This document shows, in pieces, positions 1 to 4,531 of a DNA stretch of 4,976 bases. Each line of letters starts with the position of its first letter. The stretch's first letter is position 1. The notes under the pieces were generated by a model, which worked only from the letters and a program-made list of their open reading frames with translations, made no database searches and was not told where the DNA came from. The DNA comes from a virus (lineage: Duplodnaviria > Heunggongvirae > Uroviricota > Caudoviricetes). The position numbers and the translations under genes were made by a program. The stretch is taken from the IMG/VR virus record IMGVR_UViG_2693429680_000009; one strand, given 5' to 3'.

Positions 1-72
1 GGGAAAAATATCATCAGATGGCTGCTTAAAAAAAGAACAAATGGTAGTGTCCGCTATTGCCAGTACACCTCA
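1..72. repeat. Left copy of a 72-bp perfect terminal inverted repeat (partner at 4905-4976)
   Basis: Reverse complement of 4905-4976 matches 1-72 base for base (checked in 10-nt blocks); identity ends at 73 (g) versus complement of 4904 (t). The left copy holds an ATG at 41 that opens only a 21-codon ORF (41-106). Confidence 0.95.
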
Positions 73-253
73 GGATAGCGGTCATGTGATGCCGGTTTCC
101 CGGTAACTCAGCACCGGTATCTGAGTCAACGTTTTCTCTACTGGGTCATTTCCGATACGCCCTGCCTGCTGACAGGCTTTCATCACATCTGAAAATATAG
201 CACCCTGACTGATACTGTAGTACCTAAGGTTCCAGAAACTGTGATGTATCCGG

Positions 254-3601: not shown

Positions 3602-3631
3602 ATTCTATTCCGGCACCATCTAAAACTTCAA
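3602..3631 (-). promoter_or_regulatory. Putative sigma70 promoter for the small-ORF/DUF968/rusA/Q operon
   Basis: Minus strand TTGAAG (-35, plus 3626-3631), 18-bp spacer, TAGAAT (-10, plus 3602-3607), immediately after the hok terminator and about 85 nt upstream of the ATG at 3519. Confidence 0.3.
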
Positions 3632-3639
3632 ACGCGTTG

Positions 3640-3671
3640 AAAATAAAAACAAAAACCCGCCGAAGCGGGTT
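3640..3671 (-). terminator. Rho-independent terminator of the hok transcript
   Basis: Minus-strand hairpin AACCCGC-TTCG-GCGGGTT (stem CCCGC/GCGGG, tetraloop UUCG) followed by TTTTGTTTTTATTTT. Confidence 0.8.
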
Positions 3672-3739
3672 AAGTGTGGGTGCATTGAGGATGCCTGACC
3701 CATCAGAGGTGGCGAGGGATTTCTCCCCCGCCTGGTCTC

Positions 3740-3895
3740 TTACTCCTCAGGTTCGTAAGCTGTGAAGACAGCGACCTCCGTCTGGCCGGTTCGAATTCGT
3801 ACCTCGCAGAGGTCTTTCCTCGTTACCAGTGCCGTCACTATGACGGTTAAACAGATGACGATCAGGGCGATTAACATCGCCTTTTGCTGCTTCAT
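3740..3895 (-). CDS. hokD: Hok/Gef-family type I toxin (51 aa), HokD/RelF-like
   Basis: Translation MKQQKAMLIALIVICLTVIVTALVTRKDLCEVRIRTGQTEVAVFTAYEPEE: single transmembrane helix and conserved Hok C-terminal region; matches HokD/RelF as I recall it. RBS AAGGAG 7 nt upstream of the ATG at 3895. Confidence 0.9.
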   Translation of the reverse strand: MKQQKAMLIALIVICLTVIVTALVTRKDLCEVRIRTGQTEVAVFTAYEPEE

Positions 3896-3952
3896 AGCCT
3901 GCTTCTCCTTGCCTTTCGGCACGTAAGAGGCTAACCTAGATTTGCCGTTCAT
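3740..3952 (-). CDS. mok-like leader reading frame (70 codons), in-frame N-terminal extension of hok
   Basis: ATG at 3952 preceded by GAGG; the frame runs through the hok start. The 19-codon extension MNGKSRLASYVPKGKEKQA resembles the layout of chromosomal mok/hok pairs as I recall them. Confidence 0.55.
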   Translation of the reverse strand: MNGKSRLASYVPKGKEKQAMKQQKAMLIALIVICLTVIVTALVTRKDLCEVRIRTGQTEVAVFTAYEPEE

Positions 3953-4030
3953 AGATTGAGCCTCAGATTAATGTTAAGCGTCTTGCCGGACGCGTAATGT
4001 TAACTGGGGCTTTTCTCTATCTGCCTTTTG
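3940..4030 (+). ncRNA. Expected Sok-like antisense RNA region (not resolved)
   Basis: Inferred from hok/sok architecture only: the antisense regulator should be on the plus strand opposite the mok start. The best plus-strand promoter-like match is weak (TTGCCT 3909-3914, TAACCT 3932-3937) and no clean plus-strand terminator was found; a hairpin GCGTC/GACGC lies at 3976-3993. Confidence 0.2.
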
Positions 4031-4071
4031 GTGTTCATGCCTGAGACAGATAGCCTCAAGCACCCGCTGCA

Positions 4072-4099
4072 ATTCTACTTAACTCTCCTTTTCCCGCAA
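4072..4099 (-). promoter_or_regulatory. Putative hok mRNA promoter
   Basis: Minus strand TTGCGG (-35, plus 4094-4099), 16-bp spacer, TAGAAT (-10, plus 4072-4077). Predicted 5' end GGGUGCUUGAGGC near 4065 is complementary to the transcript 3' region (plus 3678-3690), as expected for hok mRNAs. Confidence 0.55.
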
Positions 4100-4186
4100 A
4101 CCGTTTTTATCCCCAGCGGCAAATCGAATACACCACCAGCGCCACCGCCATCGCAATTCCTACCGTTGTTAATGCTTCAGGCCAGG

Positions 4187-4531
4187 TCATCGTAAAATAT
4201 CCTCCACGCTTATCAGTCCGTTCCGCTCCAGATAACTCATCGCCTTATCCGGTAATTTGCAGTCTGGCTTCGCTTTCCTCAGTTGCCAGGTTAACTGCTT
4301 TACCAGCATGGTTAACTCATCGACCAGACGCTGATATCCCACTGGTTTGTATTCATGCAATTTACCGGCTGGCTCTGCTGCCAGCGATACCAGTGCGATT
4401 TCCAGAACAGCAATATCCATCTTATATGTGCGGATGATGTCATGGTCGATTGTGCCCGGTATGCACAGTCTCTGTGCTTCAATAGTCTCCTCTGCGTGAG
4501 CTATTAACTGCTCTCTGGTAAAAGTCGTCAT
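4187..4531 (-). CDS. Hypothetical protein, 114 aa, partial paralog of the upstream 55-aa ORF
   Basis: ORF from the track. Its ATG (4529-4531) overlaps the stop of the upstream 55-aa ORF (ATGA). Shares N-terminal MTTFTRE and a central [10 protein letters not shown] motif with that ORF. Confidence 0.55.

Follow-up and report, generated by a model that had tools for sequence, protein, structure and literature searches.

The minus-strand stretch 4099-3640 of the window (the whole 4,976-nt stretch of DNA analyzed here) very probably carries an intact type I toxin-antitoxin module of the hok/mok/sok family, as judged from its sequence elements, and this allele is probably active. A sequence-only reading had described an apparently complete hok/mok locus around a HokD-like toxin; all of the features that it named were found on the minus strand, and every coordinate was correct when re-read from the sequence. 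A full hok/mok/sok locus in a lambda-like prophage is of a kind already described and is ordinary in Escherichia coli, and the locus is of low interest for this reason.

Genomic setting of the locus

According to the ORF list and the Pfam and Rfam matches, the window corresponds to the early-right (nin) region of a lambda-like prophage, whose genes are read from the minus strand. Small unknown ORFs come first in the gene order, followed by the hok locus, the rem-like 94-aa ORF (3522-3238), a DUF968 protein (3162-2104), RusA (2103-1723), the antiterminator Q (1726-872), tRNA-Met(CAT), tRNA-Arg(TCT), and an STnc100 RNA. The closest E. coli match was 97.5% identical and had the same gene order as the window. 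No Pfam or NCBIfam match was obtained for the flanking ORFs of 114, 94, 76, 55, and 27 aa.

Upstream of the locus lies a 27-aa hydrophobic ORF (4107-4190, minus strand). Its ATG and the stop codon of the preceding 114-aa ORF overlap in the sequence ATGA, and it ends just before the hok -35 box. This stretch is conserved but unannotated in phage 933W (L001, approximately 2432-2512). Directly after the hok terminator, a promoter-like sequence, TTGAAG-18-TAGAAT (3602-3631, minus strand), precedes the rem-like ORF; K-12 rem is preceded by a near-identical promoter-like sequence, with both hexamers the same and three differences in the spacer. Farther downstream, between Q and STnc100, the minus strand carries two phage-borne tRNA genes, tRNA-Met (CAT) at 694-769 and tRNA-Arg (TCT) at 517-593, and the tRNA at the position equivalent to tRNA-Met (CAT) in the closest E. 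coli match is annotated as tRNA-Ile. The STnc100 sRNA match itself (RF02076; 251-440, minus strand) is strong at 123.6 bits and is adjoined by a second, weak partial match of 21.8 bits (24-212, minus strand).

The hok and mok reading frames

The toxin gene is a 51-aa ORF (3740-3895, minus strand, ATG at 3895) that matched Pfam PF01848 HOK_GEF with an E value of 3e-23 and a score of 81.6 bits (cut-off, 22). Its product is identical to K-12 HokD/RelF. The 70-codon mok-like leader that had been noticed in the sequence was recovered from the ORF list (3740-3952, minus strand): it starts at an ATG at 3952, runs in the hok frame, and shares its stop codon with hok. A Shine-Dalgarno (SD) sequence, GAGG (3964-3961), is located 8 nt upstream of the mok ATG, and both the SD and the ATG are intact. 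The layout of mokW and mokC is the same.

Promoter and leader of the hok/mok mRNA

The hok/mok promoter (4072-4099, minus strand) consists of a -35-like TTGCGG at 4099-4094, a 16-nt spacer, and a -10 box TAGAAT at 4077-4072. The sequence is present as the sequence-only reading had given it, with 6 nt between the -10 box and the G at 4065. The -35 hexamer is weak, matching the consensus at only three of six positions, and the region upstream of the -10 box is unconserved among close relatives. In an alignment of 40 homologues from Escherichia, Kluyvera, Photorhabdus, Pantoea, Erwinia, and an R1-like plasmid, a TAnnAT-type -10 box was found exactly 6 nt before a GG(G/C) start in all 40, though their upstream sequences are unrelated. 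Owing to their weak hexamers, the hok and sok promoters both went uncalled in a consensus promoter scan, whose only promoter-like site was the one at 3631-3602; the two promoters are backed instead by conserved spacing and by mutagenesis of sokW.

The predicted mRNA 5' end coincides with the tac element (GGGUGCUUGAGG / GGGTGCTTGAGG; 4054-4065, minus strand), and the leader extends over 3890-4065. It contains the ucb/anti-SD AAGCCCC (4012-4006), the mok SD, the Sok target region, and the dcb AGCCUC (3932-3927). The Rfam family RF01794 matched at 4065-3890 over the full length of its model (positions 1-157), with 112.4 bits (gathering score, 59) and an E value of 7e-26, and model position 1 fell exactly on the 5' end at 4065 that the sequence-only reading had predicted. 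RF01794 is named for the "sok" antitoxin, but it is modeled in the orientation of the hok mRNA, with tac at the start of the consensus and the hok AUG at its end. A match on the mRNA strand therefore marks the hok leader and not the Sok strand, and automatic annotation from this family would place "sok" on the wrong strand.

Pairing of the mRNA ends and a possible structural switch

Complementarity between the 5' end and a site close to the 3' end of the mRNA had been proposed, together with a fold of the full transcript as a check. The 3' partner, the fbi element (CCUCAAUGCACCC / CCTCAATGCACCC; 3678-3690, minus strand), pairs with tac through 6 + 6 bp around a one-base bulge, an interaction published in PMC9841398. 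In the minimum-energy fold of the transcript 4065-3645, nucleotides 1-12 paired with 3690-3678, forming all 12 tac/fbi pairs around one bulged U (z = -6.6), each with a pair probability of 0.90-1.00. The pattern CCTCAA(N0-1)GCACCC occurred in the window only at the two partner sites (0.00 expected from 200 shuffles). The tac/fbi complementarity is no chance match.

The 5' dodecamer was also matched to its best 3' partner in 53 related loci of other genomes; in almost every intact one, this partner was located approximately 45-56 nt (mostly 48-50 nt) after the hok stop codon. The two elements covary: GGGUGC/GCACCC is replaced by GGGCGC/GCGCCC in Photorhabdus and Pantoea (U4-A to C4-G), and in the second half GAGG/CCUC is replaced by GAGA/UCUC in Kluyvera and Photorhabdus (G12-C to A12-U). 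From the 40-sequence alignment, the RNAalifold consensus recovered the outer six pairs unprompted. Pair 4/430 was U-A in 26 homologues, C-G in 11, U-G in 2, and broken in 1. In the outer helix as a whole, 99.6% of the cells were paired, compared with 23-59% when the partner columns were slid by 1-3 positions. Because the bulge shifts the columns between clades, pairs in the second half of the helix were not countable in the MAFFT alignment and were judged from per-sequence duplexes.

The terminator scan placed an intrinsic terminator of the hok mRNA after fbi (3640-3671, minus strand), with a 7-bp stem, a UUCG loop, and a U run. The stem-loop occupies 3671-3654, and the dedicated UUCG-loop terminator of the sequence-only reading was thus located. 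K-12 hokD and two of the compared loci (L006 and L007) carry this terminator as well.

The closed and open states of the RNA were also compared by folding. In the full-length fold, ucb paired with the mok SD region. When the tac/ucb "open" fold was imposed, it cost +11.2 kcal/mol in the full-length RNA versus +1.4-2.0 kcal/mol without fbi, and the mok SD paired with dcb in the forced open fold once the 3' end including fbi had been removed. This change in energy matches the published switch model (PMC9841398). The unconstrained minimum-energy fold of the 3'-truncated RNA was a local 5' hairpin, which corresponds to the published "metastable" structure, with the tac/ucb stem lying 1.4-2.0 kcal/mol higher. 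Since the tac/ucb fold is near-isoenergetic without fbi and is still not the minimum-energy fold, the modeled thermodynamics are compatible with a closed-to-open switch after the loss of fbi and are no proof of it.

A weak match to isrK, an sRNA of Salmonella Gifsy prophages (RF01394), was observed at 3650-3731 on the minus strand, where it spans the hairpin in the hok 3' UTR as well as fbi and the terminator. Either chance or a distant relationship between isrK and the hok 3' end may lie behind this match; with 25.7 bits against a gathering score of 50 (E = 0.014), it was too weak to interpret.

Placement of the predicted antisense Sok gene

An antisense Sok partner had been expected by the sequence-only reading, which did not delimit it and suggested alignment with known loci. 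When the locus is aligned with two annotated relatives, sokW of 933W and sokC of K-12, a predicted gene can be placed on the plus strand. Its promoter (3909-3937), read from the sequence, has a -35 box TTGCCT at 3909-3914, a 17-nt spacer, and a -10 box TAACCT at 3932-3937, and from the -35 to the -10 box it has exactly the sequence of the sokW promoter of 933W/Sp5. The mutagenic primers used to make a "promoter-less" sokW replace exactly the TAACCT -10 box, and this mutation abolishes antitoxin activity (PMC8621323).

The predicted Sok RNA of approximately 71 nt (3944-4014, plus strand) would start at the G at 3944 and end somewhere in 4014-4022. For comparison, the annotated sokW of 933W (L001, 2674-2604) is 71 nt long and starts 8 nt inside mokW, and the annotated K-12 sokC (L004, 653-711) starts at the equivalent position. 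Folding of the predicted RNA (-33.2 kcal/mol, z = -5.9) left the first 7 nt, GCCGUUC, at least 98% unpaired as a single-stranded 5' tail; a long hairpin follows, and the 3' end is a U tract. The terminator scan did not call this hairpin, which is long and imperfect; it is supported by the folding instead. The discriminator and 5' tail differ from those of sokW, and so promoter strength and the exact start site could differ. Loss of the Sok target or of the mok initiation signals from the leader had been named as evidence against a complete locus. No such loss was found, with the mok SD, the ATG, and the leader all intact.

Comparison with K-12 hokD

K-12 hokD is usually described as lacking its own upstream control, and the copy in the window had been proposed to be a more intact version. 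Both points hold. The K-12 gene, which belongs to the Qin cryptic prophage, aligns only from 3909 downstream, that is, from 14 nt before the hok ATG, and relE is directly upstream. The aligned DNA, which takes in fbi and the terminator and reaches into rem, is 94.5% identical, and the Hok protein is identical. Thus, the upstream control elements are absent from the K-12 copy. It has no promoter, tac, or ucb, no mok start or Sok target, and neither the -10 box nor the start site of sok; relBE stands in their place.

This comparison bears on the idea of a remnant of the K-12 hokD/relF kind, in which decay or truncation would have left a toxin ORF without its own control region, dependent for its expression entirely on read-through from genes upstream. 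The identity of the two Hok proteins and the RefSeq practice of calling homologous sites simply "hokD" would fit such a remnant. Against it, the window carries a 156-nt leader (4065-3910) and an upstream promoter, both missing in K-12, RF01794 matches the leader over the full model, and the ORF list and Pfam revealed no relBE genes in the window. A remnant is accordingly most improbable. The truncated hokD/relF type, in which hok directly adjoins relBE and the leader, mok, and sok are absent, does not describe the window with its full leader. Both the decayed-remnant and the relBE-fusion ideas were rejected on the alignment, in which K-12 homology begins only at 3909.

Comparison with hokW/mokW/sokW, R1 hok/sok, and hokC

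The closest studied system is hokW/mokW/sokW of the Stx2 phage 933W and the Sakai prophage Sp5 (AF125520; PMC8621323), which is 92.7% identical over 520 nt. Both loci are in lambdoid prophages, with mok in the hok frame and sok antisense across the mok start, and they have the promoter, tac, ucb, hok SD, fbi, and the sok -35 to -10 stretch in common. The C terminus of the toxin differs (...FTAYEPEE in the window versus ...FVDYESEK in HokW), as do mok codons 2-5 (NGKS versus LNTC in mokW). The Sok 5' tails therefore also differ, being GCCGUUCAU in the window and GUUCAGCAU in sokW. In addition, the window has its own UUCG-loop terminator after fbi, whereas 933W has none, and the rem-like, DUF968, RusA, and Q genes follow downstream in place of the YgiW-like gene of 933W.

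Plasmid R1 hok/sok (parB) has the same order of elements and the same RNA logic (tac/fbi, ucb, and mok in the hok frame), and an R1-like locus could be aligned with the window locus over its whole length. The sok promoter lies inside the mok-hok junction in both, as TTGCGC-17-TATCCT in R1 and TTGCCT-17-TAACCT in the window. The Hok proteins of R1 and the window are clearly more divergent (for HokW and R1 Hok, an identity of 44% was reported in PMC8621323), and R1 has an insertion of approximately 17 nt in the 5' hairpin. R1 hok/sok is plasmid-borne with a proven role in post-segregational killing, whereas the window locus is in a prophage.

For K-12 hokC/mokC/sokC (gef), tac is identical to that of the window and the leader can be aligned. 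The annotated SokC start is at the position equivalent to that in the window, 8 nt inside mok. However, the K-12 hokC leader is shorter, with the hok ATG at +150 instead of +170, and IS186 lies just downstream with the fbi partner lost.

Prevalence and annotation of complete loci

When the 521-nt locus was used as a query, matches were obtained in 4933 of 5426 complete E. coli genomes, at a median of two and a maximum of nine places per genome. A near-full-length copy, defined by at least 80% coverage of the query, which is unreachable for the truncated K-12 type, was present in at least 3824 of the 5426. Among phage records, 78 also contained the locus; one of them is 933W, in which mokW, hokW, and sokW are annotated. 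Complete copies like that in the window are what is commonly found, and their annotation goes back to the 933W genome. As reported in a survey (bioRxiv 10.1101/2025.08.07.668861), hok is enriched in prophages.

The 60-nt mok/Sok core of this allele (3921-3980) was at least 99% identical in 1113 of the 5426 complete genomes, and no annotated feature lay under it among the matches listed. One strain with the exact 60-mer is E. coli E2865 (NZ_AP018808). In most E. coli genomes, the gene that RefSeq calls "hokD" usually belongs to a full hok/mok/sok module and is not the truncated K-12 form, with mok and Sok left unannotated. The coordinates given here for the window could be used to annotate Sok in this common allele.

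Proposed mechanism and role

The following mechanism is drawn from the anatomy of the locus and from the R1 and 933W/Sp5 systems. A stable mRNA of approximately 420 nt would be made from 4065 to approximately 3645. In the full-length RNA, tac would pair with fbi while ucb holds the mok SD, and in this closed form mok and hok would not be translated and Sok could not bind. Slow trimming from the 3' end would remove fbi, after which tac would pair with ucb and the mok SD with dcb, so that the mok start and the Sok target become accessible in the refolded 5' end. Sok, a short-lived RNA transcribed from the other strand, would then bind through its single-stranded 5' tail, block the translation of mok and hence the coupled translation of hok, and lead to cleavage by RNase III. 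Once Sok synthesis stops, the 51-aa Hok would be made and the inner membrane depolarized. Sok synthesis could stop upon prophage loss, shut-off of host transcription, or prophage induction, the last of which has been shown for hokW-sokW.

For the 933W/Sp5 system, HokW is toxic and is found at the inner membrane, and sokW counteracts it (PMC8621323). The sokW RNA vanishes after the addition of mitomycin C, and HokW appears in a RecA-dependent manner approximately 1 h before the endolysin. Deletion of hokW-sokW halves phage release and has no effect on the growth of the uninduced lysogen (PMC8621323). By analogy, the most likely role of the window locus would be to help with lysis and phage release upon induction; prophage retention or the exclusion of other phages is a possible role.

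A locus that is complete in sequence may still be silent in function, perhaps transcribed with too little Hok released, and persist only as a passenger of the prophage. According to work cited in the survey (bioRxiv 10.1101/2025.08.07.668861), the native chromosomal hokA, hokB, and hokC were reported to be unable to mediate post-segregational killing, and they also gave no rifampicin-induced killing; completeness of sequence therefore does not prove activity. The weak -35 hexamer of hok points in the same direction. On the other hand, every regulatory element is intact and under visible constraint, as seen in the compensatory changes of tac/fbi and the conserved position of the -10 box, the very similar hokW-sokW is active in its native prophage (PMC8621323), and the exact 60-nt mok/Sok core is kept in the 1113 genomes mentioned above. 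On balance, a silent locus is unlikely, and an active module is the preferred reading.

Variation of the Sok 5' tail among prophage loci

Among 72 distinct prophage loci, nearly all of which encode an identical Hok protein, the most variable stretch of the transcript was 3960-3941 (minus strand), which comprises the mok start and codons 2-5 and corresponds to the Sok 5' tail. Its entropy was 0.64-0.84 bit, compared with roughly 0.2 bit or less over most other transcript positions, and at least 15 discrete variants were present. Three loci that reside together in Shigella flexneri SFBU1023 (L010, L012, and L016) all had different variants, as did the three loci of E. coli ECMA0423 (L007, L015, and L008).

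In one of the latter, L008 (approximately 430-600), tac is degraded, reading CATGTGGCTATGTGCC in place of the expected GGGTGCTTGAGGCTAT, and the leader has small deletions. This is a decaying copy, unlike the intact locus in the window.

Different Sok-target variants in co-resident prophages would fit a module that works by the same RNA mechanism and whose main role is defense (abortive infection against other phages) or prophage retention through the killing of cells that lose the prophage, and not help with lysis. However, the only direct test of a prophage hok/sok locus, hokW-sokW, revealed help with lysis and a two-fold higher phage release, the uninduced lysogen grew equally well after its deletion (PMC8621323), and hok loci are not enriched near defense systems (bioRxiv 10.1101/2025.08.07.668861). 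Defense or retention as the main role is thus a less probable reading, though one of some weight, and help with lysis is preferred.

The variation of the Sok tail may reflect selection for private Sok specificity, for which two genomes are too small a sample. We tentatively suggest, as a conjecture with the odds somewhat against it, that the variants are specificity classes, that is, an "immunity type" in which the Sok of one prophage does not neutralize the Hok of another. If this is true, each prophage would keep a private toxin switch, and the window would represent one common class, with the Sok 5' tail GCCGUUCAU. The variable Sok 5' tail poses a concrete and testable question about cross-talk between the toxin-antitoxin modules of co-resident prophages.
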